From positions 51,019-115,018 of the forward strand of contig CAYTBW010000003.1 of NCBI GenBank assembly GCA_964436255.1: DNA of 64,000 nucleotides, written 5' to 3'. Both the position numbers and the translations under genes were made by a program. Origin of the DNA: an uncultured Candidatus Saccharibacteria bacterium (GTDB taxonomy: Bacteria; Patescibacteriota; Saccharimonadia; CAILAD01; JADZBC01). Of the stretch, positions 5,485 through 31,683 are shown piece by piece (position 1 is the stretch's first letter; each line of letters begins with the position of its first letter). The notes beneath the pieces were generated by a model, which was not told the origin of the DNA, searched no databases, and was given only the letters and a program-made list of their open reading frames with translations.

Positions 5485-5737
5485 AGTATTAAGCGGCAAG
5501 ATCGTATCAGACAAGATGGACAAGACGGTTGTGGTAGCAGTAGAGCGCCTCAAAACTCATCCATTGTACAAAAAGCAGTATAAGACTACTGCTAAGTTCA
5601 AGGCGCACGATGAGAACAACGAGTACAAGGTTGGAGATGTAGTTGAGATTACCGAGACTCGCCCATTGAGTAAGACTAAGAAGTTTACTATTACCAAGAA
5701 GACAGGCGAAGTAATCGTAAAGGGAGGTAAGGCATGA
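5477..5737 (+). CDS. rpsQ: 30S ribosomal protein S17
   Basis: S17-like 86 aa. Confidence 0.9.
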
Positions 5738-6102: not shown

Positions 6103-6103
6103 T

Positions 6104-6484: not shown

Positions 6485-6486
6485 TC

Positions 6487-7035: not shown

Positions 7036-7304
7036 TGGCTAGAAAAGCATTATTGCAGCGCGAGCTAAAGCGTCAGAAATTAGCTGACAAGTATGCCGTT
7101 AAGCGCGCCGAATTAAAGGCAATGGGGGATTTAGAGGGGTTGGCAAAGTTGCCTCGCAACTCTAACCCTAATCGTATGCGTAACCGCTGCGAAGTCACCG
7201 GAAGGTCACGTGGTTATATTCGTAAGTTTGGTTTATCACGCATTACGTTCCGTGAGTACGCCTCCAAGGGCCAAGTCCCTGGTGTAACGAAATCAAGTTG
7301 GTAA
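7035..7304 (+). CDS. rpsN: 30S ribosomal protein S14 (long, non-zinc-ribbon form)
   Basis: 89 aa, …[26 protein letters not shown]… without a Cys4 cluster. Confidence 0.9.
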
Positions 7305-7320
7305 AGGAAAGGAGACAAGC

Positions 7321-7716
7321 ATGATTACAACAGATCCAATCGCAGATATGCTTACTCGCATCCGCAATGCACGCGGTGCCGGTATGTCACAGGTCTCTAT
7401 TCCTTATTCAAGGATTAAGCATCAAATTGCTGATATTCTTGCCAAATCGGGATACGTTTCAGGGGTTAAGGTCGGCAAGAACGGTGCCTTCCAGGTGCTC
7501 GAGCTTGGTATCGACGGAAGTGGTGTAAAGCGTCCGTTGCAAAAGCTTATGCGCGTCAGTAAGCCGGGTCGACGAGTTTACGCAAAGCGTGACGAAATCC
7601 CACACGTTTTAAGTGGTAGAGGTATCGTTATCGTATCGACTTCGTCAGGTCTTATGACTGGTCAAGAAGCTCGGCAAAAAGGCCTTGGCGGCGAATTAAT
7701 TTGTAAGGTATGGTAG
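7321..7716 (+). CDS. rpsH: 30S ribosomal protein S8
   Basis: MITTDPIADMLTRIRNA… is canonical S8. Confidence 0.95.
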   Translation: MITTDPIADMLTRIRNARGAGMSQVSIPYSRIKHQIADILAKSGYVSGVKVGKNGAFQVLELGIDGSGVKRPLQKLMRVSKPGRRVYAKRDEIPHVLSGRGIVIVSTSSGLMTGQEARQKGLGGELICKVW

Positions 7717-7723
7717 GTGTAGC

Positions 7724-8263
7724 ATGAGTAGAATCGGAAAAGTACCAGTTACAATCCCTGCAGGAGTTACCCTAGAAGTTAAGGACGGTATGATTGTCGT
7801 GACCGGCTCAAAGGGAAGCCTAAGCCAGCCCCTCCTTCCGGGCTTCAAAATCGAACAACAAGATGGTTTAGTCACTGTTGTGCGTGAGGTAGAGAACAGC
7901 GACACCCAGAAGCAGTTTGGTCTACTGAGAACCTTGATCGCTAACATGGTAATCGGAGTCTCCACTGGGTTTGAAAAGACATTAGAAATCAACGGTGTTG
8001 GTTACCGTGCGGCAGCTGAAGGTCGCGGCGTAAGCTTGAGCCTTGGGTACTCGCACAAAATCAGCTACCTACCTCCAGAGGGCGTAGAGCTGAAGGTCGA
8101 GGGCAATAAGATCATTGTTTCGGGTTATGATAAGCAGCTCGTAGGTGAAGCTGCAGCTAAAATCCGCTCGTATCGCAAGCCAGAGCCGTACAAGGGTAAA
8201 GGTATCAAGTACGCAGGCGAGCACATTCGACGTAAGGCTGGTAAGACAGCGGCTAAGGGATAA
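7724..8263 (+). CDS. rplF: 50S ribosomal protein L6
   Basis: L6-like two-domain 179 aa. Confidence 0.95.
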   Translation: MSRIGKVPVTIPAGVTLEVKDGMIVVTGSKGSLSQPLLPGFKIEQQDGLVTVVREVENSDTQKQFGLLRTLIANMVIGVSTGFEKTLEINGVGYRAAAEGRGVSLSLGYSHKISYLPPEGVELKVEGNKIIVSGYDKQLVGEAAAKIRSYRKPEPYKGKGIKYAGEHIRRKAGKTAAKG

Positions 8264-8267
8264 TATT

Positions 8268-8615
8268 ATGAAAAGACTCACATCTGACATCCTCAAGAAA
8301 AAACGAATCAGGGCTAAGATTCACGGTACCGCTCAGCGACCACGTTTAGCAGTAAGCGTGTCTAATCGCCAGGTTGTAGCTCAGCTCATTGACGATGATG
8401 CTGCTAAGACTTTGGCATACGCTACATCAACTGGTCAAAAAGAGTTGGACGGTAAGACCATGACCGAAAAGGCCACTTGGGTAGGCACAAAGATTGCAGA
8501 ACTCGGTGCTGCCAAGAAGGTATCGACGGTAATCTTTGATCGTGGTATACACATTTATCATGGTAGGGTTGCTGCATTGGCTGGCGCTGCTCGTGAGAAA
8601 GGATTAAAATTCTAG
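8268..8615 (+). CDS. rplR: 50S ribosomal protein L18. The ORF-track start at 8145 is an upstream extension overlapping rplF.
   Basis: MKRLTSDILKKKRIRAKIHGTAQRPRLAV… from the ATG at 8268. Confidence 0.9.
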   Translation: MKRLTSDILKKKRIRAKIHGTAQRPRLAVSVSNRQVVAQLIDDDAAKTLAYATSTGQKELDGKTMTEKATWVGTKIAELGAAKKVSTVIFDRGIHIYHGRVAALAGAAREKGLKF

Positions 8616-8617
8616 AT

Positions 8618-9103
8618 ATGGTAGAAGCAGTAAAAGAATTCGAAGAAAAGATCATAGCCCTAGATCGTGTTACACGTGTTGTTAAGGGTGGTCGACGTTT
8701 CCGCTTTAGAGCGACCGTAGTAGTAGGGAATGGTAAAGACAAAGTTGGCGTTGGCGTAGGTAAGGGACAGGACGTTCAGACAGCTATCGCTAAAGCCGTA
8801 AGCAAGGCTAAGAAGGCAATGATTACTGTTGAGCTAAAGGACAATACGATCCCTCACGAAACCCAGGTTACTTTTGGCGGAGCAACGGTGTTTATGAAGC
8901 CAGCCAGTCCTGGTACAGGTGTGATCGCCGGCGGCGCAGTTCGATCCGTGGTGGAAGCAGTCGGCATCAAAGACTTGCTCACCAAGTCGCTTGGTTCAAC
9001 AAACAAGATTAATAATGCTTACGCGACACAAGAGGCTCTATCTACTCTAGGTAGTGTAGCTGCGTTTGGCGCAAAGCCAACGGTAGCTAAGGAGGCCAAA
9101 TAA
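8618..9103 (+). CDS. rpsE: 30S ribosomal protein S5
   Basis: S5-like. Its stop overlaps the rplO start (taATG) with no rpmD in between. Confidence 0.95.
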   Translation: MVEAVKEFEEKIIALDRVTRVVKGGRRFRFRATVVVGNGKDKVGVGVGKGQDVQTAIAKAVSKAKKAMITVELKDNTIPHETQVTFGGATVFMKPASPGTGVIAGGAVRSVVEAVGIKDLLTKSLGSTNKINNAYATQEALSTLGSVAAFGAKPTVAKEAK

Positions 9104-9591
9104 TGAAGATCCATGAATTGCCCCTAAAGTCCCACAAGGCCAAGAAGCGCCTAGGGCGCGGTATTGGTTCTGGTCAGGGAAAGACTGCCGGACGTGGTAC
9201 AAAGGGTCAGAACTCACGAACCGGCGGAGGTGTACGCGTTGGTTTCGAAGGTGGTCAGACTCAGCTTTCTCAGCGCTTACCGAAGGTACGCGGATTTAAA
9301 TCTAAAAACCCGACTAATTATCAGGTTGTGAATGTCGGTGACCTTGCTCGTTACAAGGCAGGGGTTGTTGACGGCGCCAAGCTGGCGGCCGACGGACTTG
9401 TCAAGAAGGCTGATGGTCTCATCAAGCTCCTTTCTGTTGGCGAAGTCACCGTTGCCTACACGGTAGAAGTGACTGCTGCCAGCCAAGTTGCTATCAAGAA
9501 GATCGAAAAAGCAGGAGGCAAGGTAGTACTCGCTGCCAAGAAGGCTCAAAAGCCAGTAGCAAAAGCACAGGATTCAGAAGACGCTAAATAA
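9103..9591 (+). CDS. rplO: 50S ribosomal protein L15
   Basis: …GRGIGSGQGKTAGRGTKGQNSR… is canonical L15. Confidence 0.95.
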   Translation: MKIHELPLKSHKAKKRLGRGIGSGQGKTAGRGTKGQNSRTGGGVRVGFEGGQTQLSQRLPKVRGFKSKNPTNYQVVNVGDLARYKAGVVDGAKLAADGLVKKADGLIKLLSVGEVTVAYTVEVTAASQVAIKKIEKAGGKVVLAAKKAQKPVAKAQDSEDAK

Positions 9592-19421: not shown

Positions 19422-20951
19422 ATGACCCCCACTAAGAAATTCAAGCAACTAGTGTTTATTAAAGCGATGGAGATAAATGGGATATCTCCACTACCGCACT
19501 ATTTCGAGGAGATCTATACGAACCGGACAGGTATAAGAAAGCTTGGCTTACGTGGTGATGAGAATTACTTATTCCATAGTGTGAATGGGCTTGGGGCTGG
19601 CTACTACGAGCGGCATGAGATGGAGTTATCTGCTCAATCCGTCTATAAGTTTTTTCAGACAAAGCAGCACCGTGTCGACTTCTTTAAGAAGATAGAGAGG
19701 CTTCTGCAGGATCTCCATGTTTTTAGCGAGATGCTAGATGAGGAAGACCTCTCAGCGCTAAGCGACAAGCAGATAGCTCAATATTTTCTTGAGGCTAACC
19801 GTATGCATGGTAGGGCTTTTTCCCTGTACATCGTTAGCCAACCATATAGGATGGCCATTTTCGAGAAGAATCTTAGGTATGAATTGGGGAAGAGGGTTGC
19901 TGCAAGTCGCATAGACTCGTATTTGGCTGAGCTTGCGACTTCAGAGAAGCCTACGAAGGTCACTGCTGAAGAGCTTGATTGGCTTCGCTTCCTGATAAAA
20001 TACAAAACTAAGTACGGCAATAGCTTAAGTCTTTCCGGTCTTCGAGAGAGCAAGCCTGATATGTACAGTGACTTAGTTAGCCATTTCGAGAAGTATAGGA
20101 CTCTCACGCTTGGCGATGGTAATTGGACATATGATATAAAACATTACCTGAACAACTTGAAGAACGATTACCCAAAAGACCTAAAGGACCTTAAGAAGAG
20201 CCTAAATGAAAGGTCCGGCTATCCTGGCTTTGTAAAAGCTCGTCGCAATTTGCTTATAAGTGAGCTTTATCTGACTCAGGAAACCGTCGATGACCTCGCT
20301 TTTTTGGCGGACATAGGCCATACTCGCCTCGTCATGAGGATTGATGGCTGGTTGCCATTTGTATCTACGATTATTAAGTTAGACATCGAGCTTTCTAAAA
20401 GACTAGATGTGGGGGATGTACTTAACTATATGACCGAAGAAGAGCTGGTAGCCCTGGCCGAGAATGGAGATATGGTGCCCGAGAGAGAACTGCTCGCGCG
20501 GAAAAAAACTGGGGAGTTCCTCATCCTGAATGACCATGGCTCGTACAGAATTTTTTATGGCGCAGAGGCAAATAAGAAGTTTAAATCTCTAGTACCCGAG
20601 GTCGATCATGCAGCTATCACGGAGCTCAAAGGCTCAACCGCTGTAATGGGTAAAATTACAGGGAAGGCATGTGTATACCGATGGGATGATAACTTAGAGA
20701 AGAAGCTCGAAGTCATTAAGAAAAACCCAATCCTAATTACTGGTCAGACGCGACCCTCCATGATGCCTATCATCCGTCTTGCGAAGGGGATCGCCACCGA
20801 TGAGGGTGGTGTTACTTCTCACGCCGCCATAGTGTCACGGGAGCTTGGCATACCGGCAGTCATTGGTACGGTCCACGCTACTAAGGTTTTCAAGGACGGA
20901 GACCTAGTGGAGATTGATGCGGACAACGGAGTAGTGAGGAAACTGTCATGA
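19422..20951 (+). CDS. PEP-utilizing-enzyme family protein with a ~400-aa helical N-terminal domain of unknown specificity and a C-terminal swivelling phosphohistidine domain
   Basis: C-terminal …TDEGGVTSHAAIVSRELGIPAVIGT… is the PEP-utilizers signature. Confidence 0.7.
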   Translation: MTPTKKFKQLVFIKAMEINGISPLPHYFEEIYTNRTGIRKLGLRGDENYLFHSVNGLGAGYYERHEMELSAQSVYKFFQTKQHRVDFFKKIERLLQDLHVFSEMLDEEDLSALSDKQIAQYFLEANRMHGRAFSLYIVSQPYRMAIFEKNLRYELGKRVAASRIDSYLAELATSEKPTKVTAEELDWLRFLIKYKTKYGNSLSLSGLRESKPDMYSDLVSHFEKYRTLTLGDGNWTYDIKHYLNNLKNDYPKDLKDLKKSLNERSGYPGFVKARRNLLISELYLTQETVDDLAFLADIGHTRLVMRIDGWLPFVSTIIKLDIELSKRLDVGDVLNYMTEEELVALAENGDMVPERELLARKKTGEFLILNDHGSYRIFYGAEANKKFKSLVPEVDHAAITELKGSTAVMGKITGKACVYRWDDNLEKKLEVIKKNPILITGQTRPSMMPIIRLAKGIATDEGGVTSHAAIVSRELGIPAVIGTVHATKVFKDGDLVEIDADNGVVRKLS

Positions 20952-21784
20952 AATACATATCCCCATTTAGTAGGATTTCAAAGAAGGATTCCATGGTATA
21001 TGGGGGGAAGGTTGCTTCTCTCGGTGAAATGTATTCAGCTGGCATCCCGGTACCAAACGGGTTTGGGGTGTCAATTGAAGCTCATAGAGAATTGGGGGGC
21101 AAGCCCTTTACAGATGAGTTTAGGCAGGACCTCCAGAGCGCGCTTAACGAGCTGGGGCATGACCGTGTTGCAGTTCGTTCATCCGCTGTCGCAGAGGATG
21201 CAGCGGATGCTTCATGGGCTGGCCAGCTGGAGACGTATTTGAACGTCGATGCAGATGGCCTTGAAGATGCTATCAGGAAGTGCTGGAAATCTGTCGATGC
21301 AAGTCATGTTAAGGCATATGCAAAAGGTAAGAAGCTAGGTAAAGACAGTCTGCTGGTTGGCGTCGTAGTTCAAGGCATGGTGGACAGCGAGGCTTCTGGC
21401 GTTATGTTTACCGTCAACCCCGTTACTCACAGTAAGGGTGAACTCATGATTGAGGGCGCTTATGGGCTCGGAGAGACCGTAGTCCAGGGTATCGTAACTC
21501 CCGATAATTGGCTCGTTGATCGTAAGGACCATACTGTGTCGCATTTCGGTATACAGGTTAAGGAGAAGATGATGATTTTTCAGAATGGCAAGAATGTCAC
21601 GTTAGCAGTCCCTGATGCAATAGCCGATAGGGCTGTCTTGATGGAAGAGCAGGTACTTGAGCTGGCAGCGTTAGGTATTAAGATAGAGGATCATTATGGG
21701 GCTCCGCAAGATATCGAGTGGGCTCGCTCTAAGGGTGCTTTCTATATAGTACAGGCACGTCCGATCACAACTCTTGATTCTTAG
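20948..21784 (+). CDS. PPDK/PEP-synthase N-terminal ATP-grasp nucleotide-binding domain protein (stand-alone), translationally coupled to the previous gene by an ATGA overlap
   Basis: …GGKVASLGEM…GIPVPNGF…, VRSSAVAEDAADASWAGQ, …PQDIEWA…YIVQARPIT. Confidence 0.7.
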   Translation: MKYISPFSRISKKDSMVYGGKVASLGEMYSAGIPVPNGFGVSIEAHRELGGKPFTDEFRQDLQSALNELGHDRVAVRSSAVAEDAADASWAGQLETYLNVDADGLEDAIRKCWKSVDASHVKAYAKGKKLGKDSLLVGVVVQGMVDSEASGVMFTVNPVTHSKGELMIEGAYGLGETVVQGIVTPDNWLVDRKDHTVSHFGIQVKEKMMIFQNGKNVTLAVPDAIADRAVLMEEQVLELAALGIKIEDHYGAPQDIEWARSKGAFYIVQARPITTLDS

Positions 21785-21888: not shown

Positions 21889-22740
21889 ATGCGCGTAATT
21901 GCAAAGATTATTATTATCCTAACATCCCTGGCTCTTGTGTGCTTGGTTGGTGCGCACGTAATCACCAGTAGCGTTACGAACGAGGACTTGCTAAGCAAGC
22001 AGTTTGAGTCAGCAGGGGTGTACAGCCTGGGGGCAGAGTCCTTGCAGGAATCATTCCAGGAAAGCCTTAAGGCGGCTAACGTTTCTGACCCTGTTGTAGG
22101 CGAGATACTCGCAAAGAGTGTGACTGCAGAGGCAGTGGCGAGTGCTGCCAAACCTGTAATCGGTGAATTTACCGACTGGATAGTCGCCAAGGGCGGGGAG
22201 GAGCTAAAACTAGCCTTGGATTTGACGAGTATTAAAAGCCAGATAGTACGGGAATCAAAACTCCGGGGAAGTATCGAGACGAGCTTTGTGGTGACACGCG
22301 AAGTACCTGATAGTTTGAGTTTACTAGAGACGTCTAAAGCCGGCTCAAATTACGAAGGGCTACAGCAGGCGTACCAGCGAGCCAATGCATTAGTTCTACC
22401 TTTGCTCGTAGGCGTGTTGGCAGGGATGGGTCTGCTCGTGCTGTTGGCGTTGCGCTTGCCCCACAAGCGCTTGGCCTGGCCAGGGTGGGTGTTGATTGCT
22501 GCCGCAGTTGTGGGCATCGTTCTGGTATATGCCACCCCCACACTCCTCGCCGCAACGATACTGAAAGAAGGAGCGGTGAACGCGGAGATTAATCGGATTA
22601 GCTTAGGACTGATCCGGGCGACACTGGATGCTTCACGGCTGTATTGGTATGTTCTTGCAGCTGCAGGAGCTGGCTTATTTGCGCTATCAATACCGCTGCA
22701 GCATCGCTACAATAAGCGACAGAAGAAAGGGCGGCACTAA
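21889..22740 (+). CDS. Membrane protein of unknown function (N-terminal TM, periplasmic-like middle, 3 C-terminal TM)
   Basis: Hydropathy read from the translation. Its stop abuts the downstream kinase start. Confidence 0.4.
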   Translation: MRVIAKIIIILTSLALVCLVGAHVITSSVTNEDLLSKQFESAGVYSLGAESLQESFQESLKAANVSDPVVGEILAKSVTAEAVASAAKPVIGEFTDWIVAKGGEELKLALDLTSIKSQIVRESKLRGSIETSFVVTREVPDSLSLLETSKAGSNYEGLQQAYQRANALVLPLLVGVLAGMGLLVLLALRLPHKRLAWPGWVLIAAAVVGIVLVYATPTLLAATILKEGAVNAEINRISLGLIRATLDASRLYWYVLAAAGAGLFALSIPLQHRYNKRQKKGRH

Positions 22741-24341
22741 TGTCTTTTGATAGCTCCCAATACCTAAGAAAACTATACGACGGAACCTCGAGTAGGCTAC
22801 GCTGGCAGATTATTGCATTGGTTGCAGCAACGTATTTGTTTGTTGGGAAAAACATTGGAGCTGTTACTGCAATACTAATCGTCGCATCGGCCTATAACGC
22901 TTTTACATATACCGCGTGGGCGGCGCGGCACGACGTCATAGGGACTAAATGGTTCGATATCACCACCAACTTCACCCTGATTGCCTTACTCGTTCTATGT
23001 ACGGGAGGTCTTGCAAGCCCGTATGGGCCGCTTGTGCTCGTTATTATCCTGGTTGCTAGCTATTGGTATGGTTATACGGGCCTGGGCTATGTCATGGCTC
23101 TATTGCTCGCTTATTGGGCTCTTATGCTCTTTCAGAACCCTATCTACGACTTATCACATGCAATCTTTGGTGTGTTCTCGATTATCTTAGGGGATTATAC
23201 TGTTCGATTGGGCAAACTTACTCGTAGCGAGCAGGAGAGGATCGATCGTGACACCAACGCGTTAATGCAGCAGCGCAAGAGGCTCTTTAGTCTCGTAAAC
23301 GGCCTCTCGCAGGCAATCTTTGTTGTCGACAAGGATGGAAAGATCATTGTGTATAACGGTGCGGCCTTGGAGCTTCTAGACACTCACTACGAGATTGAAC
23401 GCCTACCTGCGGTAGAGGTCGTACACTTATGTGATGAGGCTGGCTCGCAGGTTTTCCCAATTCAGCATTCTCTTTCTTCTGGAGAAATGTTCGCGAGCAG
23501 CGACTTGAAGCTAAAGGTTAACGAGACCACAACGCTCGATGTGTATACAAGCATTACCCCTATGGTTGAGGAGGGCGAAAGAGTTGGCGCGCTATTACTC
23601 CTAAGGGATATTAGTGAGCAAAAAACGCTCGATAGCCAGAAGGATGAGTTTATTTCTATCATATCTCATGAGTTACGAACTCCAGTAGCGATCGTGGAAG
23701 CCGACTTGTCTACGCTCATGTTGCCTAAGTTCGCCCAACTACCGGAGCATGCCAGCAAACTCCTTAATAATGCCTATCAGAACCTTACTTTCTTAGCGAG
23801 TTTATTAAAGGATCTATCAAATCTGGCTAGTTCCGAGCGCAGTCTGCTCGAAACAGAGTTGGCTCCATTGGACCCTGTATCGTTTTGCCACGCGATGATC
23901 GACGGCATCCGGCCAAAAGCAGAGGAGCAGGGCTTGAAGCTCAAGTTTACTCATTCCACTGGACTCAAGAAGGTCACCACAAGCCCCCAGCGCGTAGAGG
24001 AAATACTAATGAACTTCATGACGAATGCCTTGAAATACAGCAGCCGCAAGAACTCCATCGTAGAGCTTCGTATATCTCCATCCAAGATGTATCAGGGGGG
24101 TGTCTGCTTTAGCGTAAGCGACTCTGGCATAGGTATGAAGAAGAAGGATCAGGCCCAACTATTCACTAAGTTCTTCCGCTCCGAGAACCCTCAGGCACAG
24201 GCGGTCAAGGGAACCGGCATGGGGCTGTATATATCTAAAAAGCAGGCTGATAAGATCGGCGCAACAATCAGTTTGGAAAGTACATTCGGAAAGGGTAGTG
24301 TCTTTTCACTAGACGTCCCCCGTGACGTCAAGAAGGCTTAG
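22740..24341 (+). CDS. Sensor histidine kinase: polytopic membrane N-domain, PAS-like domain, HisKA and HATPase_c
   Basis: …ISHELRTPVAIVEADLS… (H-box) and …GTGMGLYISKKQADKIGATISLESTFGKGSVFSL… (G-boxes). Confidence 0.8.
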   Translation: MSFDSSQYLRKLYDGTSSRLRWQIIALVAATYLFVGKNIGAVTAILIVASAYNAFTYTAWAARHDVIGTKWFDITTNFTLIALLVLCTGGLASPYGPLVLVIILVASYWYGYTGLGYVMALLLAYWALMLFQNPIYDLSHAIFGVFSIILGDYTVRLGKLTRSEQERIDRDTNALMQQRKRLFSLVNGLSQAIFVVDKDGKIIVYNGAALELLDTHYEIERLPAVEVVHLCDEAGSQVFPIQHSLSSGEMFASSDLKLKVNETTTLDVYTSITPMVEEGERVGALLLLRDISEQKTLDSQKDEFISIISHELRTPVAIVEADLSTLMLPKFAQLPEHASKLLNNAYQNLTFLASLLKDLSNLASSERSLLETELAPLDPVSFCHAMIDGIRPKAEEQGLKLKFTHSTGLKKVTTSPQRVEEILMNFMTNALKYSSRKNSIVELRISPSKMYQGGVCFSVSDSGIGMKKKDQAQLFTKFFRSENPQAQAVKGTGMGLYISKKQADKIGATISLESTFGKGSVFSLDVPRDVKKA

Positions 24342-26347
24342 CGTAGTTCGGTACGCTTCTGCCAACGTGGGCGGAATAATTCATAGCTAAGCATTGAGAA
24401 TGCTAGCGCCGTTAGGCTGATGAGGCTTGTTGCGGGGTAGAACAGTGCCCCCAAGAAGCCTTGTTTGCTGGTGGAGGATATCATGATCCTCGGAGCTAAG
24501 CCCGCGCAGTACGCTGCCGCCCAGAGCGTGATTGACTGAGGGCTATAGACTGCCGAAGCAAGAAGTCCGATCCCCGGAGTTACAAAAAGGAAGGCCCCAA
24601 GTGTGATAGCGCTGACGGTTAGGGGCATGTTGAATTGTAAGGCGGGATAGTAACGCTGGACATTGTCATGGGTAATGGTTTCAAAAGTAGCATGGTTTTG
24701 AGACGTTGCTACGTCACTTGCTAGGTAGAAGCTGGTTTTAAGCCCTGCCAGGCTGGCTTGACGCGCTAGCTCCATTTCGGCGATTGGGCTCTTGCGAGAG
24801 GACTTGAAGCCTCCAATTTTGTGTAGGGCCGATCGATTCATCCCAATCAGGCCGCTGTAGGCTAAGTTGATGCTCGGGTGTTTCTTTTCAACCCATCCCG
24901 CCGGATAGCAACCTAGGAGCAAGAAGTGGTTTTGGTTGAGAACAAGTTTTTGTGCTAGGGTTTTGTTCTGGTCTGCAGGCAAGAGCGAGACGAGTTGTAG
25001 GCTTTGCTTCTCCATTAGGCTAACGATTGTTGCGAGGGCATTGGGCATTAGGATGGTATCAGCGGACAGCAGAACTACTACCTCGCCTTCGGCATGGGTT
25101 AGTAGCTGTTCGGCAGCCCAAGCACTGGCTTCCCAACCCGACTCTGGCTCACTAATGTCGAGTATCCTTAGTCTTTCGTCCTGAAAACCTTGCGCTAGTT
25201 TGAGCGTGTTGTCATCAGAACCTAGGTCGGTAAACAGTACCTCTATGTCAGGATAGCTTTGTCCAAGGACGGCAAGTAGGGTCGAGTTAATGTTTGAACC
25301 CTGGTTGAGGGCATGTATTAATACACTAACCTTAGGTGGCTCGCTTATGACAGAGTTTGTTTTTGGTCTTCGTAGGGAGAGGGCGTTGTAGGTGCCGAGT
25401 AGTAGTTGAAGCAGCCCAAGCCCAATGAGGCTGTAGGCAATAATGTTGAAGCGCGCTGTACCCAGATTGAATGGATCCGCGGTGAAAAGAATGATTTGAG
25501 TTAGCCAGAAGCCCACGAGCCAATTAAGCCAGAGGAAGTTTTTCCAGCCCCTGCGGTATACATGTGCTTTGGCATCGCTTTTGTACTTGCGGAAGAATGT
25601 GACGTTGAGCGCGTAAAGGCTAAGTAGTATGCCGCACACTAGCCCTAACGGCCAGTAGAAGGCAGCCACAATAATCGAGCACGCAACGTAGAGCGCTAAA
25701 GCGTAGCTTGCCGTTCTGCGCGTGCCAAGGTAGGTGGCGATAGACTTAATCCCACCGGCTCTATCCGGGGCAATGTCTTGGATTGCTCCGAATGCCTGAC
25801 TCGCCATACCCCAAAAAGTGAAAGCAACGAGTAGGGCTAGTGGGTACGATCTTGCACCACCAAAAGCCAAGCCGAATACCATTGGTCCGACAAAGTGGAG
25901 GGCGGAGTTGACTGAGTCCAGAAAAGGAACCTCTTTGAATCGCAGGCCTTTGATGCTATAGCTAACACAAAGAAAGCTTACGAGAGCTATGACTATATTG
26001 CTTGTAGGGCTACCTTGCCATATGAAGTATGCCAAGAAGGGAATATTGAACGCTGCAATCGCATACCATAGTTGCTTTCTTTGTTGGGGCGCAACGATAC
26101 TGCCCTCAATAGACCCTTTGCGAGGGTTTTTGATGTCAGATTCGTAGTCGTAAATGTCATTGATGCCGTACATTGCGAGGTTGTATGGCCAGAGGAAGTA
26201 GGCAATACCAATCCAGAAAGACAAATCTATTCTTCCGGTTGCCAATAGATAGCCTGCTGCATATGGTGCAGCCGTATTAATCCAGCTAAATGGCCTGCTT
26301 ACTGCAAAGACCTGTTTGATGATAACTGCTAGTTTATTTACTATCAT
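24338..26347 (-). CDS. Fusion protein: N-terminal UbiA-family prenyltransferase (lycopene-elongase/CrtEb-like), central GT2 glycosyltransferase domain, C-terminal TM helices
   Basis: N-terminal …GINDIYDYESDIKNPRK… Asp-rich UbiA motif with about 8 TM. Middle domain …VSVLIHALNQGSNI…FTDLGSDDNT…LLSADTIL… is GT2 with a DxD. Confidence 0.65.
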   Translation of the reverse strand: MIVNKLAVIIKQVFAVSRPFSWINTAAPYAAGYLLATGRIDLSFWIGIAYFLWPYNLAMYGINDIYDYESDIKNPRKGSIEGSIVAPQQRKQLWYAIAAFNIPFLAYFIWQGSPTSNIVIALVSFLCVSYSIKGLRFKEVPFLDSVNSALHFVGPMVFGLAFGGARSYPLALLVAFTFWGMASQAFGAIQDIAPDRAGGIKSIATYLGTRRTASYALALYVACSIIVAAFYWPLGLVCGILLSLYALNVTFFRKYKSDAKAHVYRRGWKNFLWLNWLVGFWLTQIILFTADPFNLGTARFNIIAYSLIGLGLLQLLLGTYNALSLRRPKTNSVISEPPKVSVLIHALNQGSNINSTLLAVLGQSYPDIEVLFTDLGSDDNTLKLAQGFQDERLRILDISEPESGWEASAWAAEQLLTHAEGEVVVLLSADTILMPNALATIVSLMEKQSLQLVSLLPADQNKTLAQKLVLNQNHFLLLGCYPAGWVEKKHPSINLAYSGLIGMNRSALHKIGGFKSSRKSPIAEMELARQASLAGLKTSFYLASDVATSQNHATFETITHDNVQRYYPALQFNMPLTVSAITLGAFLFVTPGIGLLASAVYSPQSITLWAAAYCAGLAPRIMISSTSKQGFLGALFYPATSLISLTALAFSMLSYELFRPRWQKRTELR

Positions 26348-26645
26348 GGGTTGTCTCCTTTGACCTGAAATGCAGAAACAATGTGGGTGCGAGTATTACC
26401 GCAACGATGAGGTAGGAAAAATCTTCGACTGGGATCGTTCCGAGCCTGACATTGAGCGTGTAATTTGTATTGTAGCGCACAATCGGCAGTGCCGTTAAGT
26501 ACGTGTTAAATACAATCATGCAGCCAAACATAATGAGGCCGCTGGCGCGGACTAGGCGCCAGTTTACGAGCAGCGGGCGAAGCCTAAGTATGATAAGCCC
26601 TGCTGTTGCGAGGAACACCATGTTAAGCAGCACATACCTATACAT
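26334..26645 (-). CDS. Lycopene-cyclase-domain small subunit (CrtYd/CrtYf-type), 103 aa
   Basis: 3 TM and a conserved …GTIPVEDFSY… PxE(D/E) motif. It overlaps both neighbours. Confidence 0.6.
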   Translation of the reverse strand: MYRYVLLNMVFLATAGLIILRLRPLLVNWRLVRASGLIMFGCMIVFNTYLTALPIVRYNTNYTLNVRLGTIPVEDFSYLIVAVILAPTLFLHFRSKETTHDSK

Positions 26646-26982
26646 GGCTCTTGCCCCTCATTCCCGCCCATAGTCCCACTAAAGAATAGAACCAAAGGCT
26701 TGTGTAGATAAGTAGTGTCAAGAAGAGTACCTCTTCAACTGGCAAGTTGGGGGTAAATAATGACACCCCAATAACGTAAGCCTGGTTAGTAGAGAACACA
26801 CCAAGCAAGATCCCCGCGATGTCCCAAAGCAGAAAAAAAACCATGAGTGCAGCCCAGGTCTTTAGTGCTGCCCGGCGGCTCTTGAATAGAACGAGCTTAT
26901 AGCGCCAATCAGCGATGCCAACCCCCACTAAGCTTATAATGAGTATGGCCAGGTAGGCGTAGTTGAGTTGCAGTAGCATCAT
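26638..26982 (-). CDS. Lycopene-cyclase-domain small subunit (CrtYc/CrtYe-type), 114 aa
   Basis: 3 TM, …WDIAGILLGVFSTN… …NLPVEEVLF…. Confidence 0.6.
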   Translation of the reverse strand: MMLLQLNYAYLAILIISLVGVGIADWRYKLVLFKSRRAALKTWAALMVFFLLWDIAGILLGVFSTNQAYVIGVSLFTPNLPVEEVLFLTLLIYTSLWFYSLVGLWAGMRGKSHV

Positions 26983-27036
26983 ATAGGATTAAGTATACTA
27001 CTCAATTCGGCTTCAGGTGTGATAATATATGCCGTA

Positions 27037-28530
27037 ATGGCAAAAAAAATGAAAACAGCAATTATAGTTGGTGCTGGCATAGGCGGTCTAACAACCGCTG
27101 CAAGACTTTCAAAGGATGGCTACCAAGTAACCATCCTGGAGAAGGACAAGAACGTCGGTGGGCGAGCTAATGTGATCAAACAGGACGGTTACACCTTCGA
27201 TACTGGTCCGACGATCCTTATGATGACGGATGTTCTTTACGACACGTTTTCGTATTGCGGTAAGAACTTCGATGACTATATCAACCTGTCACAGCTTGAG
27301 CCGAACTATCAGGTTAAGTGGGCCGATGGCAGCGGGGTTGAAGTTTCCAGTAATCTCCCAAGGTTCGCAAAGTCGCTTGCCAAAATTGACCCAAAAGCTC
27401 CAGAGCAGTTCTACACATTCTTTGGCGAGATGGCGAAGATGTACAGAATCGGTCGGGGGAAGTTTATAGATAAAAACTTTGATAAGCTCACGGATTTTAT
27501 CAACGTTCCGGCTGGACTCGAGCTATTAAAGGGCGGGGGCCTAAAGAAGCTTTACAGCTTTGTTTCGACTTACTTTGACGATCCGCGACTTAGGATGCTT
27601 TTCAGTTTCCAGAGTATGTATTTAGGAGTTTCGCCTTACGAGGCTCCTGCGGTATACGGCATGGTGAGCTATATGGAGACAGGGCTTGGAATATGGTACC
27701 CCAAGGGAGGCATGCATAAGCTGCCAGAGGCCTTTGCGAAGCTTGTGAAAGACATGGGCGGTGAAATTCGAGTTAGTACACCGGTCCAGCAAATCCTCAT
27801 TCAAGACAAGGTGGCGTATGGGGTGAAGCTTGAGGGTGGAGAAGTATTGAAGGCAGACGTGATCGTGTGTAACGCAGACTTGCCGTACGCATACAAAAAG
27901 CTCATAGAGCCAAAAGACAGGCCGAAAGTAAAAGAAGCGCAGATGGACAAGCTCAAGCAGGCGAGTTCAGCCCTCCTATTCTACTGGGGTGTTAACGATG
28001 AGATGAAAGACATGTTGCATCATAACGTCTATTTTTCCAAAGACTTTAGGGGCAACCTCGACCAAATCTTCCACGAGAACAAGCTACCGACTGATCCGGC
28101 ATTTTACATATACATACCAACCAAAACTGATCCAAAGCTGGCTCCCAAAGGTCGACACGCCGTCTATATATTAGTACCCGTACCGAATTTAGACGCCGGC
28201 ATTAACTGGGACACGGCAACTGAAAAGATAAAGAAGCGAGTCCTGGAGCGCATGAAGAAGATTTACAAAGTCGATATTGCAGAAAAGATCGAATCAGAGG
28301 CAATATTCTCCCCGCAAGACTTTGAGACTAGGTTTAACCTAACTGATGGCACAGCATTTGGACTCAGTCATCACTTTTTCCAGTCGGGCTACTTTAGGCC
28401 TTCGAACAAGGCAAGGGGCATAGAGAGACTTTACTTTGCTGGGGCTAGCACATACCCAGGCAGCGGCGTACCAATGGTGACACTGAGTGGCAAACTTGTG
28501 GCAGAGAGGATTGCTAAGGAGCTCCAATAA
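27037..28530 (+). CDS. crtI: Phytoene desaturase (FAD-dependent). The start is uncertain between 27019, 27037 and 27049.
   Basis: N-terminal dinucleotide fold KTAIIVGAGIGGLTTA and CrtI-like length and C-terminus. Confidence 0.85.
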   Translation: MAKKMKTAIIVGAGIGGLTTAARLSKDGYQVTILEKDKNVGGRANVIKQDGYTFDTGPTILMMTDVLYDTFSYCGKNFDDYINLSQLEPNYQVKWADGSGVEVSSNLPRFAKSLAKIDPKAPEQFYTFFGEMAKMYRIGRGKFIDKNFDKLTDFINVPAGLELLKGGGLKKLYSFVSTYFDDPRLRMLFSFQSMYLGVSPYEAPAVYGMVSYMETGLGIWYPKGGMHKLPEAFAKLVKDMGGEIRVSTPVQQILIQDKVAYGVKLEGGEVLKADVIVCNADLPYAYKKLIEPKDRPKVKEAQMDKLKQASSALLFYWGVNDEMKDMLHHNVYFSKDFRGNLDQIFHENKLPTDPAFYIYIPTKTDPKLAPKGRHAVYILVPVPNLDAGINWDTATEKIKKRVLERMKKIYKVDIAEKIESEAIFSPQDFETRFNLTDGTAFGLSHHFFQSGYFRPSNKARGIERLYFAGASTYPGSGVPMVTLSGKLVAERIAKELQ

Positions 28531-29612
28531 TGACAGTAGTTGCGCCAGAACTAGACTTCTTCTCGTTAAACAAGGCAGTGAAAGCCGGCGTCGATAGTCG
28601 ACTTGAGCAGTTCTTTGCCCATAAGAAAAAGAGGGCAGCTGGAATTGATGGCCGAACAAAACGACTCGTGGAGGATATTGAGAAGGTTGTGCGTAGGGGC
28701 GGCAAACGAATCCGCCCTACTTTGGCGGTCGTGGGCTATCAGGCTGCGGGAGGCAAGGACCTAGAGCATGCCCTCGATGCGGCTGTGGCAGTTGAACTGT
28801 TACATGCCTTTATGCTCGTGCATGACGACGTCATGGATCAAGACCTTGTACGTCATGGCGGCAAGAACCTTGGTGGAATATACCGTACTAGATTCGCCAA
28901 GAGCATGGGCGAGGCAGAAGCTGCACATACTGCCGACTCAATGGCTATTTTGGCCGGAGATTTGTTAATGTCTTGGGTTTTTGAGGTGCTAGCGGTCTAC
29001 GTTAAGGACGGAGCGTTGTTAGCGCGAGTAATTGGGCAGCAGTCAGCTGTGATTTTTGACACTGCAGCAGGTCAGCAGCTTGATGTGCTTTCTGTGTTCG
29101 AGGAGCAGATGAGCGTCAAGCAGATTATGAAAATTCCACATTATAAAACGGGCCTATATTCTTTTGTGGCACCGCTCCAGTTTGGCGTATTAATCGCCGG
29201 CCAACAAGAGCTCCCTGTATTTTTTGACTACGGGATTAATCTAGGCACGGCCTTCCAGCTCATAGACGATGACTTAGGGATGTTCGGCTCGAGTAGGCAA
29301 ACAGGCAAACCGGTTCAGTCAGACTTAGAAGAAAACAAACCAACTCTTTTGCGGCACTATGGCTTCAAGCTTTGCAAGGATGGTGAACTTGGAGAACTAA
29401 AGAGCTACTTTGGTAATCAAAATTTGAAGACTACAGATGTAGCGCGAGCACGCAGAATATTGAGTGAAAGTGGCGCTCGAGCCAAGGTCCTAATCGCAGC
29501 TGAGGGTTACGGAAAGAAGGCGACCCAAGCCTTAGAGGGTAGTGGCTTGGATACTTTGACAACCAGTAGGCTTACCGATCTCGCACATTTCTGTCTTAGC
29601 CGAAAGCACTAG
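28530..29612 (+). CDS. crtE: Polyprenyl (geranylgeranyl) diphosphate synthase
   Basis: First and second Asp-rich motifs LVHDDVMDQD and FQLIDDDLGMFG. Confidence 0.8.
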   Translation: MTVVAPELDFFSLNKAVKAGVDSRLEQFFAHKKKRAAGIDGRTKRLVEDIEKVVRRGGKRIRPTLAVVGYQAAGGKDLEHALDAAVAVELLHAFMLVHDDVMDQDLVRHGGKNLGGIYRTRFAKSMGEAEAAHTADSMAILAGDLLMSWVFEVLAVYVKDGALLARVIGQQSAVIFDTAAGQQLDVLSVFEEQMSVKQIMKIPHYKTGLYSFVAPLQFGVLIAGQQELPVFFDYGINLGTAFQLIDDDLGMFGSSRQTGKPVQSDLEENKPTLLRHYGFKLCKDGELGELKSYFGNQNLKTTDVARARRILSESGARAKVLIAAEGYGKKATQALEGSGLDTLTTSRLTDLAHFCLSRKH

Positions 29613-29616
29613 TAGG

Positions 29617-30450
29617 ATGGGCAGTCGCGCTAGTTATTGCTATTGTGCCAAAGTGACCCGTAAGTCGTCCTCATCTTTCTACTTAGCGTCGCGCTACTTT
29701 GATGCTGAAACACGAAGGCATCTTCATGCGATTTACGCCTTTTGTCGGACGGCCGATGATATTGCTGACGCCCCAGGCCTGGAACGCAATGTGCGGCTTG
29801 ACGAAATTGGCGTGCTCGAGCATACGCTGAAGACTGAGCGTTATGAGGCTGATGACCTATTGTGGCCGGCGTTCTTTGAATCTGTAAAGAAGTATGGTAT
29901 CCCAAAGAAGTACTTTAATGAGCTTCTCGAGGGCATGAGGTTTGATATTGAGGGTGGCGCGATCAAGTCCTTGGCGGACCTGGAGCGATATAGCTACCTA
30001 GTAGCAGGCACGGTAGGGGGCATGTGCGCCCACCTTGTGACGAAGCCCAGTGCCTCGATAATAGAGGCCGCAATAGACCTGGGTATCGCCATGCAGATTA
30101 CTAACATATTGCGAGATGTAAGCGCCGACGTTTTGATTGGTCGAATTTACCTCCCGGAGGACATGATGCGGCAATACGGACTAAAAGAGTCTGACATACG
30201 ACAAGGAAGGTTCACGGAGGGATCAGCTGTGCTGATGGCTGAACTGGCTGCTATAGCTCAACAAAAGTATGAACGAGCCGAAATTGTGGTTAGGCGGTTG
30301 CCTAAGAATAATCGCAGGCCTATCCTGATCGCACTTGGGTTGTATCGCGAGATTCTTATGCGCATAGAACAGCGAGAGTTTAGAGTCTATAATACGAGGG
30401 TACGCTTAAATATCCTTCAGAAGTTATGGCTCGTAATAAGAACAAGATAG
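29617..30450 (+). CDS. crtB: Phytoene synthase
   Basis: …YAFCRTADDIAD… and …GIAMQITNILRDV… squalene/phytoene synthase signatures. Confidence 0.85.
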   Translation: MGSRASYCYCAKVTRKSSSSFYLASRYFDAETRRHLHAIYAFCRTADDIADAPGLERNVRLDEIGVLEHTLKTERYEADDLLWPAFFESVKKYGIPKKYFNELLEGMRFDIEGGAIKSLADLERYSYLVAGTVGGMCAHLVTKPSASIIEAAIDLGIAMQITNILRDVSADVLIGRIYLPEDMMRQYGLKESDIRQGRFTEGSAVLMAELAAIAQQKYERAEIVVRRLPKNNRRPILIALGLYREILMRIEQREFRVYNTRVRLNILQKLWLVIRTR

Positions 30451-30459: not shown

Positions 30460-31683
30460 ATGAACCAAACCCCAAGTAGGCGGCCGGGGATAGACGGATT
30501 GAGCCATCGATCCCACAAGGTTCAGCCGCATCAATCTCACCACTCTCATTCAGTTAGCCCTGTAAAACCAGCACACGTAGTGCATCAACCTCGTCATGCT
30601 CTCGGCATGATGACTGTGCTGTCTCAGGTTTTTTCACCTCGGGTAGATGCTGGGCTCAAAAAGCTAGCTATCGTCCGTCTAGCGCTCGATATTAAGTTTT
30701 GGCTTTTACTCTGCTTGCCGTTTATTGCTCTATGGGCACTAAATGCCTCCCAGGGCTCTCCTTGGCTGGTATTCTCGGGCCTCAAGGAAGCTAGTTTAGA
30801 ATGGGGCTATCCTAGGTTTGTGATGGTGGCAGCGGGAGGCTACGTGGTCATTATTCTCTCGATTCTCGCCACGACTCTACTAAATCAGGTTATGTTGGGT
30901 CGAGAATTGCTTCGTAGTCACGGGCATGTGGTCGGGGTCCATTCACTCGTTCGCTTGACCGCGGCAAATGCGCTTAAACTGACATTTGGGTGGTTTGTCC
31001 ACGTCGCGGCTATCTTTTTGACTACAGTTGCTGTGACATGGGGCGCTTGGATCCTTGTTCGGGGCAATGTAGTTGGTAGATACTACCTCGCAGCCATTAT
31101 TTTGGCTTTGGGCTTGTCTTTAGTGTTGGGCATGGAGGCTGTGTGGTACGCTAGCCGTCTTGTGCTTGCAACAAGCAATGCGAAGCTCCGAAGGGCTTGG
31201 TTGCTAGCCTGGCGGACCGTAGTTTCGGGCCCCGTTTTTAGTCTTTGGGCAGTCGTTCTGGCAAAAAGCGTCCAGCTTATCTTCATTGCGCTGATCGCAT
31301 CCTCGGTATATTTTAGCACCCAGGTTCTTTTGGGCCAGAATTCAGCGGCTACCCGGGCGGCCGTATGGGTATTGTGGCTCATGTTTGACCTTGCTTCCGG
31401 TTACGCTCTGCTTATAGCGAGTACACGATATTGGGCTGGCTGGTACTCCTTGCTATTGTTGCGGCTTCCAGGGAGGTTCGCGGAGCAGCACAAGGTTGCA
31501 GCTCCTTCAGGCGCGGCGTTGAAGGGTTTCTGGAAGGGCCTGGTGTTGTGCCTCGTCGTGCTGTGTGTATTGTGCGCAGGACTCTTGTTGGCTGTTGCGT
31601 GGAGAGATCCTATCGTCACGTACCTGGGTGCCATGCGCGATTCGTTGCCCATGAACCTGGAGACCGTAGTACCCGGTAAATAG
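30460..31683 (+). CDS. Polytopic membrane protein of unknown function with a His-rich N-terminus
   Basis: N-terminal …HRSHKVQPHQSHHSHSVSPVKPAHVVHQPRH… followed by about 8 TM helices. Confidence 0.4.
   Translation: MNQTPSRRPGIDGLSHRSHKVQPHQSHHSHSVSPVKPAHVVHQPRHALGMMTVLSQVFSPRVDAGLKKLAIVRLALDIKFWLLLCLPFIALWALNASQGSPWLVFSGLKEASLEWGYPRFVMVAAGGYVVIILSILATTLLNQVMLGRELLRSHGHVVGVHSLVRLTAANALKLTFGWFVHVAAIFLTTVAVTWGAWILVRGNVVGRYYLAAIILALGLSLVLGMEAVWYASRLVLATSNAKLRRAWLLAWRTVVSGPVFSLWAVVLAKSVQLIFIALIASSVYFSTQVLLGQNSAATRAAVWVLWLMFDLASGYALLIASTRYWAGWYSLLLLRLPGRFAEQHKVAAPSGAALKGFWKGLVLCLVVLCVLCAGLLLAVAWRDPIVTYLGAMRDSLPMNLETVVPGK

Follow-up and report, generated by a model that had tools for sequence, protein, structure and literature searches.

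What would a compact cluster of carotenoid-type genes make in a CPR (candidate phyla radiation) bacterium, one of a group usually portrayed as metabolically minimal and as taking lipids and cofactors from its hosts? The question is raised by a 64,000-nucleotide (nt) stretch of an uncultured Candidatus Saccharibacteria bacterium (assembly GCA_964436255.1, contig CAYTBW010000003.1, positions 51,019 to 115,018), called the window throughout. Its positions 24338-30450 hold six open reading frames (ORFs) in two tightly packed divergent operons, and one of these ORFs encodes a 669-amino-acid (aa) protein that joins a UbiA-family prenyltransferase to a glycosyltransferase of family 2 (GT2). Our best estimate, of moderate confidence, is that the cluster specifies a pathway to a cyclic, glycosylated carotenoid of the C50 type that draws its C5 units from outside. 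The evidence is observed at the locus and at its relatives: domain content, catalytic motifs, equivalog membership, the gene set, vertical residence in the chromosome, and a coupled loss of motifs and crt genes.

The chemistry that we infer from these observations covers every single step, how long a chain the synthase makes, which rings are formed, which sugar is given to which acceptor by which donor, and where isopentenyl and dimethylallyl diphosphate (IPP and DMAPP) come from; it would run as follows. The prenyl diphosphate synthase would make geranylgeranyl diphosphate (GGPP), CrtB would join two GGPP to phytoene, and CrtI would convert phytoene to lycopene. The UbiA half of the fusion would then transfer C5 from DMAPP onto C-2 and C-2' of lycopene, giving hydroxylated acyclic C45/C50 compounds of a flavuxanthin-like kind, and a CycA/CycB heterodimer would close the end rings. 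The GT2 half, tethered in the fusion with its catalytic domain in the cytoplasm, would finally place sugar onto the hydroxyls of the added C5 units. The product would be comparable to the glucosides of actinobacterial decaprenoxanthin, sarcinaxanthin or C.p.450.

Gene set, backbone enzymes and cyclases

Domains were called by Pfam and NCBIfam profile searches of the window's ORFs, with the curated NCBIfam cut-offs as thresholds. All six ORFs proposed in a first-pass annotation of the stretch lie where it had placed them and carry the domains it had named, and the motifs it had quoted (NDIYDYESDIKN, SVLIHALNQ, DLGSDDNT and SADTIL) were all found (Table 1). On the minus strand cycA and cycB overlap by 8 nt and cycB and the fusion gene by 14 nt; on the plus strand crtI and the synthase gene overlap by 1 nt, and the synthase gene is spaced 4 nt from crtB. 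This packing fits two divergent, translationally coupled operons. A promoter and terminator scan of the 24-32 kb interval gave 15 sites where 8.6 +/- 2.8 were expected from shuffled sequence, which is uninformative and was not used as evidence.

Table 1. Features of the cluster, of its two neighbours and of the fusions at decayed loci; positions refer to the window unless another locus is named.
Feature	Position	Strand	Remarks
Elongase-GT2 fusion (predicted), 669 aa	24338-26347	-	UbiA aa 27-270 (5e-25) + Glycos_transf_2 aa 341-461 (3e-14)
Fusion N-terminal half, UbiA prenyltransferase, aa 1-295	25463-26347	-	predicted lycopene elongase, CrtEb type
Fusion linker transmembrane helix, aa 298-324	25376-25456	-	predicted in AlphaFold2 model
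Fusion C-terminal half, aa 325-669	24338-25375	-	GT-A fold GT2 + three C-terminal membrane helices; predicted carotenoid glycosyltransferase
Cyclase subunit B (CycB), 103 aa	26334-26645	-	lycopene-cyclase domain, motif IPVED
Cyclase subunit A (CycA), 114 aa	26638-26982	-	lycopene-cyclase domain, motif LPVEE; first gene of the minus-strand operon
Divergent intergenic region	26983-27036		read directly; 36-54 nt, varying with the crtI start
CrtI-type phytoene desaturase, 497 aa	27037-28530	+	ATG start; alternative GTG at 27019 gives 503 aa
Short-chain trans-prenyl diphosphate synthase, 360 aa	28530-29612	+	PF00348 3e-49; probable GGPP (or FPP/GGPP) synthase
Squalene/phytoene synthase family enzyme, 277 aa	29617-30450	+	PF00494 3e-68; probable phytoene synthase CrtB
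PAS-domain histidine kinase	22740-24341	+	Pfam PAS, HisKA, HATPase_c; neighbour, not shown to belong to the cluster
407-aa multi-pass membrane protein	30460-31683	+	no Pfam/NCBIfam match; between crtB and secE-nusG
Fusion P0092 at decayed locus	L015 8001-9953		same secE-nusG site
Fusion P0082 at decayed locus	L019 7001-9004		same secE-nusG site
Fusion P0091 at decayed locus	L020 7001-8986		same secE-nusG site

Among the plus-strand enzymes the assignment of CrtI is secure: it scores 506.8 bits against TIGR02734 (cut-off 238.1), retains the N-terminal FAD-binding GxGxxG as VGAGIGG, finds its best solved relative in Pantoea CrtI (4dgk, 282 bits) and is 65-77% identical among Saccharibacteria loci. 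The prenyl synthase matches PF00348 with 168 bits and falls short of the cut-off of every NCBIfam equivalog; its best solved relatives are the farnesyl diphosphate (FPP) synthase 8f8f and the GGPP synthase of C. glutamicum, 3lk5, at ~118-120 bits each. Its first Asp-rich motif, DDVMD, has no insertion and is preceded by Phe at position -5, and an uninserted DDxxD with Phe at -5 resembles that of type I short-chain (FPP/GGPP) synthases. The third enzyme, of the squalene/phytoene synthase (SQS_PSY) family, scores 231 bits against PF00494, 207 of the 279 bits needed for HpnD, and 155 of 500, 148 of 550 and 136 of 480 bits against the CrtB models; its best solved relatives are 8is6, named 'CrtM', and the Enterococcus enzyme 5iys. 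From their context the two are probably a GGPP synthase and the phytoene synthase CrtB, with GGPP the probable chain length of the synthase product.

These same matches bring in a staphyloxanthin-like alternative, in which CrtM, CrtN and a CrtQ-like GT2 would make a C30 diapocarotenoid, CrtQ being itself a GT2. The nearest solved structures of the SQS_PSY protein include one named CrtM, and the synthase stands equally near to FPP and GGPP synthases. Against this, CrtI is closest to the C40 enzyme of Pantoea and the gene set corresponds one-for-one to C50 clusters; moreover, ionone-type cyclases and CrtEb should, as we reason from carotenoid chemistry, need psi-end groups, which C30 diapocarotenoids do not have. 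We give a C30 pathway scant probability.

The two small cyclase subunits pass TIGR03462 (cut-off 39.4) with 48.8 bits for A and 44.4 bits for B. Against PF18916, subunit B scores 53.7 bits (3e-14) and subunit A 21.6 bits (3e-4), which is under the cut-off of 27. They align one-to-one with the A-type and B-type subunits found in other Saccharibacteria and in the C50 clusters of Amnibacterium and Kocuria, and subunit A is 39-40% identical to the A subunits of Amnibacterium and Kocuria. The PxE(E/D) motif, whose absence the first-pass annotation had named as a refutation of its reading, is present in both when aligned: LPVEE in A and IPVED in B stand at the PLEE/PVEE and PIED/PVED of Amnibacterium and Kocuria. 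Because the cyclase genes are positioned next to and translationally coupled with the elongase gene, as in Actinobacteria, we argue that the pair would act on a C50 rather than on a C40 substrate.

The fusion protein and its two halves

The UbiA half scores 338.4 bits against the equivalog NF009608 (cut-off 217), which is also matched by the JGI/KEGG-labelled CrtEb P0150 (454 bits) and by the elongase of the Amnibacterium cluster, P0160 (472 bits). Against the UbiA, MenA, MqnP and ubiA_other models it reaches only 20-39 bits, and it stays below two sister equivalogs, NF009516 and NF010119, with 159 of 248 bits for one and 143 of 205 bits for the other; one of the two presumably stands for LyeJ. 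The closest unfused relatives are 285-290-aa Micrococcales proteins (Rathayibacter, Arthrobacter, Georgenia, Amnibacterium, Subtercola) with 46-52% identity over ~280 residues, and among the matches listed two carry the JGI label 'lycopene elongase/hydratase (flavuxanthin-forming)'. Both Asp-rich motifs are intact (N63-D64-xx-D67-xxx-D71 and D191-xxx-D195) and are kept across the intact homologues (alignment A1), and the gene is encoded together with crtI and crtB, directly downstream of the cyclase pair. A PDB sequence search with the UbiA half returned nothing at E <= 0.01, and in a Foldseek search with the full-length fusion GT-A matches dominated and a UbiA structure was absent from the top 50. 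The NF009608 score and the roughly 50% identity to Micrococcales CrtEb-type proteins bear out the proposed grouping with lycopene elongases rather than with quinone or haem prenyltransferases, and the UbiA half is predicted to be a lycopene-elongase-type (CrtEb) enzyme.

Unfused homologues of two kinds accompany it. The first is a clade of 326-336-aa proteins (P0128, P0122, P0124, P0133, P0145, P0166, P0184, P0193) with 47-54% identity to the UbiA half. As a side observation, members of this clade have ~40 extra C-terminal residues, possibly the linker helix minus the GT2, and at L014 (658-1653, P0128) the elongase homologue follows two cyclase genes and a downstream GT2 gene is absent. The second belongs to another cluster type of Saccharibacteria/Patescibacteria metagenome-assembled genomes (MAGs), L004-L007, where an elongase homologue of 290-310 aa follows the cyclase gene or genes, no fused GT2 is present, and an adjoining CrtI-family protein is 28-37% identical to CrtI of the window. 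That protein is possibly CrtD-like.

An acyclic C50 product of the bacterioruberin type has to be weighed at this point. Haro-Moreno et al. (2023) reported hidden Markov model matches to lyeJ, crtD and cruF in Baikal Patescibacteria and in a single genome of Saccharibacteria, which they interpreted as a sign of bacterioruberin synthesis (PMC9948471), and the L004-L007 cluster type, with its possibly CrtD-like protein, may be the lyeJ plus crtD combination of that study. This reading misfits the window because both cyclase subunits are present and intact and neither a CruF-type hydratase nor a second CrtI/CrtD paralogue was found among the window's ORFs of at least 150 aa with a family match, the scope of all negative gene searches reported below; in addition, NF009516 and NF010119 failed where NF009608 passed. 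For the cluster described here we regard it as very improbable.

A C40 product is the other alternative that bears on the elongase. Here CrtYc/Yd-type cyclases would turn lycopene into beta- or epsilon-carotene, possibly a retinal precursor, and the UbiA-GT2 protein would prenylate or glycosylate some other compound. PF18916 and TIGR03462 cover C40 and C50 cyclases alike and no sequence feature separates the pair in the window from C40 heterodimeric cyclases (CrtYc/Yd). Furthermore, Jaffe et al. found Saccharibacteria that bear rhodopsins and lack blh, carotenoid genes not being described in them (PMC9296517). However, the UbiA half passes the CrtEb-type equivalog, its gene shows the translational coupling with the cyclase genes that actinobacterial C50 operons also have, the UbiA motifs decay exactly where crt genes were lost (see below), and neither a rhodopsin nor Blh or another carotenoid oxygenase was found in the window, as had already been remarked in the first-pass annotation. 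We therefore hold a pathway that stops at C40 to be improbable and keep the cyclic C50 product as the preferred reading.

How the two halves are joined was examined in an AlphaFold2 (AF2) model built on a 23-sequence alignment, with a mean local confidence (pLDDT) of 88 and a pTM of 0.86. Helices were taken from this model, a Kyte-Doolittle count being too crude (5 of ~13). The model has nine UbiA helices, an extra helix at 298-324, a GT-A domain and three C-terminal helices; the extra helix follows the UbiA helices and precedes the GT-A domain's first strand (340-346), in a stretch with pLDDT 84-96. Standalone HpnB-like GT2s align from their residue ~36-45 and have an equivalent N-terminal helix. 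In the standard UbiA topology the Asp-rich loops are cytoplasmic and the ninth helix ends outside. Given this topology, the linker helix is exactly what a cytoplasmic GT-A domain needs, and this tenth helix would return the GT2 catalytic domain to the side of the UbiA active-site loops.

The GT2 half matches PF00535 (3e-14) and, over its full length (model positions 29-367 of 386), the HpnB model TIGR03469 with 103.3 bits (1e-29; cut-off 379); the CruG model NF045692 gives 62.5 bits (3e-17; cut-off 600). Since both scores fall short of the cut-offs, we class it as a relative and not as a member of either family, that is, as a putative member of an HpnB/CruG-like class of terpenoid-associated membrane GT2s. 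Its top Foldseek PDB matches are WrtF, PcManGT, SpsA and BcsA (E ~3e-9). In an exhaustive HMMER search nine representatives scored better than 1e-30; seven of them are full-length fusions and the remaining two (494 and 538 aa) resemble truncated fusions. The next relatives, with weaker scores, are standalone HpnB/CruG-like GT2s of 360-400 aa at ~28% identity.

Within the domain the motifs are non-canonical (IHALNQ, TDLGSDDNT, SAD430T) and common to the GT2 halves of Saccharibacteria. In an alignment with SpsA the positions of D39 and D98, which bind uracil and ribose there, hold Leu and Ala; the equivalent of D99, the metal-binding Asp, is kept as an invariant D430. The family-wide conservation of these motifs argues that the domain works, and the two substitutions point to a donor that is unusual itself or is bound in an unusual way. 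Opposite decay was observed in P0041 and P0085 (alignment A1), in which TDLGSxDNT of the GT2 half has become YANLDKNQNS or YANLDHNPQS; of the two proteins, P0041 has intact UbiA motifs and P0085 partly altered ones.

That the GT2 half would glycosylate the carotenoid is suggested by the fusion itself, by recurrent fusions beside crtI or crtB, by a triple fusion that includes a cyclase domain, and by the habit of known cyclic C50 producers to glycosylate their product.

Residence in Saccharibacteria and loss of the crt genes

At 40-94% identity, at least 95 protein clusters consist of full-length homologues of the fusion, which public MAGs label merely 'prenyltransferase'; the protein of the window is itself in public protein data (P0395), under a JGI name that lists its two domains. 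All organism-named homologues are Candidatus Saccharibacteria or Saccharimonadales, and NusG beside the cluster is 92-93% identical to NusG of Saccharibacteria MAGs, in agreement with the earlier placement in a CPR genome. A genome scan found eight loci, six of which are from Saccharibacteria/Patescibacteria MAGs; L003 is labelled 'bacterium' and L008 a Microbacteriaceae MAG. In the window the cluster is flanked upstream by a block of ribosomal proteins, SecY and RpoA with tRNAs and downstream by nusG-rplK-rplA-rplJ, dnaX, dnaB, recR and cysS. A recurring order, secE-nusG-rplKA, an unknown membrane protein, crtB-synthase-crtI, divergently cycA-cycB-fusion, and often a PAS histidine kinase, was found in L001, L002, L013, L016 and L017, in assemblies from NCBI, ENA, JGI and Logan with contigs of up to 487 kb. 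The fusions at these five loci are 47-68% identical to that of the window, and their NusG proteins 80-93%. In all, the site is shared by at least six divergent Saccharibacteria assemblies, and over the lineages that keep it the fusion proteins are 47-94% identical.

Because the position is kept while the fusion proteins diverge, the cluster is a long-standing, vertically inherited component of the chromosome in a subgroup of Saccharibacteria. Contamination and a recent island are both excluded, and the earlier view that the cluster had not arrived recently is borne out by the chromosomal position that divergent lineages have in common. The composition had also been called host-like, at a guanine-plus-cytosine (GC) content of 46-48%: the likeness is real (48.8% in the cluster, 49.2% in the window minus its last 4 kb), the figure slightly too low. 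Mis-binned or mis-assembled DNA of an actinobacterial host would be the trivial explanation, and indeed the nearest relatives of the elongase and the cyclases outside Saccharibacteria are Actinobacteria, which are known hosts. Yet the cluster lies between the ribosomal-protein/SecY/RpoA block and secE-nusG-rplKA on a single contig, its GC content equals that of its surroundings and the arrangement recurs in independent assemblies; synteny, composition and recurrence together rule out host contamination and leave an artefact only a vanishing probability.

The most informative comparison comes from three loci at the same secE-nusG site, L015, L019 and L020, from which crtI, the synthase gene and both cyclase genes are gone, L019 retaining a lone SQS_PSY gene. 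Their fusions (P0092, P0082 and P0091) have lost both Asp-rich UbiA motifs, and these are exactly the three lineages that miss crtI, synthase and cyclases (alignment A1). Identity to the window's protein is 37-42% for the UbiA half and 47-51% for the GT2 half of the decayed fusions; where the locus is intact, dividing UbiA identity by GT2 identity gives 0.94-1.30. The fusion at L003 looked reduced at first, but it keeps intact motifs and was not counted with the decayed loci. The organisms are common, since the collection index lists P0092 and P0082 in over 30 blocks each. The coincidence of motif loss with crt loss ties the UbiA half to carotenoids, selection acting on it only when the backbone genes are present, and the conservation of the GT2 half in lineages that lack crt genes suggests a further role for that half.

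This leads to the most serious rival, in which the cluster makes the same cyclic C50 carotenoid, but the GT2 half serves the glycosylation of other membrane lipids or of the envelope and the fusion merely anchors it. In its favour the GT2 half is retained and conserved in three lineages without crtI, synthase and cyclases and with decayed UbiA motifs, two nucleotide-binding Asp residues are lost, standalone GT2s are only ~28% identical and the HpnB and CruG scores (103 and 62 bits) are far from 379 and 600. Nevertheless, other phyla too have elongase-GT2 fusions next to crt genes, in one case with a cyclase domain in the polypeptide; the curated families nearest to the GT2 half are linked to terpenoids; glycosylation of the product is the norm in known cyclic C50 producers (PMC5401885); and two roles are possible, so that retention elsewhere is compatible with carotenoid glycosylation here. 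We consider this rival unlikely, with a real chance of being right. Of the first-pass statement that the fused GT2 makes the glycoside, the GT2 identity stands; glycosylation is an extrapolation, opposed by the cut-offs, the lost Asp residues and the retention without carotenoid genes.

A more speculative variant, to which we give a small chance, is a pigment metabolism shared with the host: the C50 glycoside would be built from IPP/DMAPP or prenyl diphosphates of the host, and in the crt-less lineages the GT2 half would glycosylate carotenoids or polyprenoids of the host membrane, the decayed UbiA domain serving as a lipid-binding scaffold in a form of salvage.

Precursor supply has to be considered with these readings. 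Genes for IPP/DMAPP synthesis (methylerythritol phosphate or mevalonate route) and idi were not found among the window's ORFs within the scope given above, and in a survey of freshwater CPR bacteria classes other than Gracilibacteria, Saccharimonadia included, encode just the C10-C20 steps (PMC9166423). The absence of C5 genes from the window together with this survey means that completeness is not established, and the description as a complete pigment pathway could not be upheld. The C5 units are probably supplied by the host.

Both points on precursors count against a glycosylated cyclic C50 pathway, and they do not stand alone. The scores for CrtB versus CrtM and for GGPP versus FPP synthase favour neither assignment clearly, the cyclases by their sequence could equally be C40 enzymes, and the GT2 half lies far under the HpnB and CruG cut-offs, keeps the metal-binding Asp alone and persists without carotenoid genes, so that carotenoid glycosylation is perhaps not its sole or real job. 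Finally, the two actinobacterial C50 clusters compared share only ~29-35% identity with the window's CrtI, CrtB and synthase, and 46-48% with its elongase. Set against the elongase and the A-type cyclase (39-40%), the low values of the plus-strand proteins make the cluster look like a mosaic rather than a single block from the host. A recent transfer en bloc from Actinobacteria was considered and rejected, as elongase and cyclases show 38-52% and CrtI, CrtB and synthase 29-35% identity and the position is kept across deep divergences within Saccharibacteria.

Two neighbours adjoin the cluster (Table 1). The histidine kinase gene runs towards the fusion gene, with an overlap of 4 nt at the ends, and has no adjacent response regulator; it is kept as a neighbour in most Saccharibacteria loci (L001, L003, L015, L017, L019 and L020), with or without crt genes. 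The 407-aa membrane protein has a His/Pro-rich N-terminus and is very fast-evolving, with syntenic homologues of 21-26% identity in all Saccharibacteria loci examined. A role in the pathway, for example as an exporter, was considered and is improbable, since these homologues persist at loci without crt genes.

Three further observations concern the rest of the window. A glycosylation block at 39711-44386 comprises a GtrA-like gene (39711-40235), a PMT_2 gene (40228-41784), a 254-aa GT2 (41766-42530) and a PMT_2 gene on the opposite strand (42545-44386); such a block implies glycosylation that depends on polyprenyl-phosphate sugars, and with it a further demand of this genome for isoprenoid lipids. 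At 61308-63929 (plus strand) an 873-aa ORF matches the Pfam domains MVP_shoulder (4e-25), Vault_3 and Band_7 and is colinear over residues ~500-847 with eukaryotic major vault proteins of 861-893 aa (E 5e-21 to 7pkz, 4hl8 and 2qzv). Exactly at its start the GC content rises from ~46% to 61-68%, and GC at third codon positions is 83% against ~53% in the carotenoid genes; the gene, vault-protein-like and foreign in composition, was either acquired horizontally or stems from a chimeric assembly at the end of the contig. At 19422-21784 (plus strand) the parts of an enzyme like phosphoenolpyruvate (PEP) synthase or pyruvate-phosphate dikinase are encoded by two overlapping ORFs in swapped order, first a 509-aa protein with the PEP-utiliser mobile domain at its end, then one of 278 aa that carries the PPDK_N ATP-binding domain.

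Significance and comparison with known systems

If the cyclic C50 reading is right, a six-enzyme specialised lipid pathway is maintained at a fixed site across much of Saccharibacteria. This implies that environmental, presumably light- or oxidant-exposed Saccharibacteria invest in a membrane pigment of their own, likely purposes being photoprotection or control of membrane rigidity, as proposed for actinobacterial C50 carotenoids. Should a C5 pathway be lacking, the host must be the source of the precursors, and precursor exchange becomes testable. The rhodopsin/retinal problem is touched indirectly, lycopene and a cyclase being available and an oxygenase not. The elongase-GT2 fusion is a Rosetta-stone link that could guide the recognition of carotenoid glycosyltransferases elsewhere; as a compact enzyme for two steps it also offers itself for the engineering of glycosylated C50 carotenoids, and the loss series offers a comparative handle on the real role of the GT2 half.

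The closest counterparts are the actinobacterial C50 clusters. In C. glutamicum the order is crtE-crtB-crtI-crtYe-crtYf-crtEb, with cg0722 between crtE and crtB and a separate crtX, and Actinobacteria known for glycosylated cyclic C50 carotenoids carry crtEb, crtYe/Yf and crtX (PMC5401885). The Amnibacterium cluster (L009) has the order synthase, SQS_PSY, CrtI, two cyclases and UbiA, that of C. glutamicum. The window holds the same functional gene set as the clusters for C. glutamicum decaprenoxanthin (di)glucoside and M. luteus sarcinaxanthin (crtE2, crtYg/Yh, crtX) and as the Micrococcales clusters, the glycosyltransferase being matched by its predicted role; here as there the cyclase genes are directly upstream of and coupled to the elongase gene, and the elongases belong to the same NF009608 equivalog. 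In contrast to these clusters, the genes are divided between two divergent operons, elongase and glycosyltransferase share one polypeptide, a MarR-type CrtR and an MMPL gene are missing, and the genome is that of a CPR bacterium without a known C5 precursor pathway. In the Kocuria locus L012 we observed an 836-aa CrtB-CrtI fusion (5135-7645) and a 393-aa cyclase-UbiA fusion (8001-9182), with a 259-aa GT2 and a DUF2238 gene divergent upstream; no similarity was detectable between this 259-aa GT2 and the fused GT2 of the window.

Fusions of consecutive membrane enzymes of the C50 pathway have precedents. LbtBC of Dietzia sp. CQ4, reportedly described by Tao et al. in 2007, is said to unite the lycopene elongase and a subunit of the C50 cyclase in one natural protein, and Kocuria and Leucobacter have 393-aa cyclase-UbiA fusions whose UbiA part is 47% identical to that of the window. 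In the LbtBC-type proteins, however, the partner is an N-terminal cyclase, whereas here it is a C-terminal GT2.

UbiA-GT2 fusions occur beyond CPR as well, so that the fusion is not restricted to them: P0097-P0103 (P0100 from a Limnocylindrales/Chloroflexota MAG, the rest from unassigned metagenome contigs) lie beside crtI or crtB, and P0109 (L010 1802-4015, a JGI metagenome contig) is a 737-aa cyclase-UbiA-GT2 triple fusion. These proteins share with the window's fusion the domain order, the linker helix, a cyclase gene upstream and crtI and crtB downstream. Unlike it, their GT2 halves keep the canonical IPxRNE, VDDGSTD and DADT and are 21-25% identical to that of the window. Their UbiA halves form a separate clade in a neighbour-joining tree that was midpoint-rooted, had no bootstrap and did not contain the characterised CrtEb of C. 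glutamicum, CrtE2 of M. luteus, LbtBC of Dietzia or haloarchaeal LyeJ. The low GT2 identity and the separate clade indicate that the elongase-GT2 fusion probably arose more than once.

With HpnB and CruG, both from families associated with terpenoid lipids, the GT2 half shares an N-terminal helix, the GT-A domain and C-terminal membrane helices in full-length alignment; it differs in its distance from the nearest standalone members and in its altered nucleotide-binding motifs. The bacterioruberin genes (lyeJ-crtD-cruF of haloarchaea and Arthrobacter) likewise commit their pathway through a UbiA-type lycopene elongase and share the proposed C50 product; the window, in contrast, has cyclase subunits and neither CruF nor CrtD. 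The find is less without precedent than the first-pass annotation had suggested, as lyeJ, crtD and cruF of Patescibacteria were published in 2023 (PMC9948471) and the fusion protein clusters were already public. A publication that describes an elongase-GT2 fusion was not found in our literature search. Measured against all these systems, C50 genes in Patescibacteria are known and the enzymology is conventional; the fused elongase-GT2 architecture is new, and an informative gene-loss series accompanies it.

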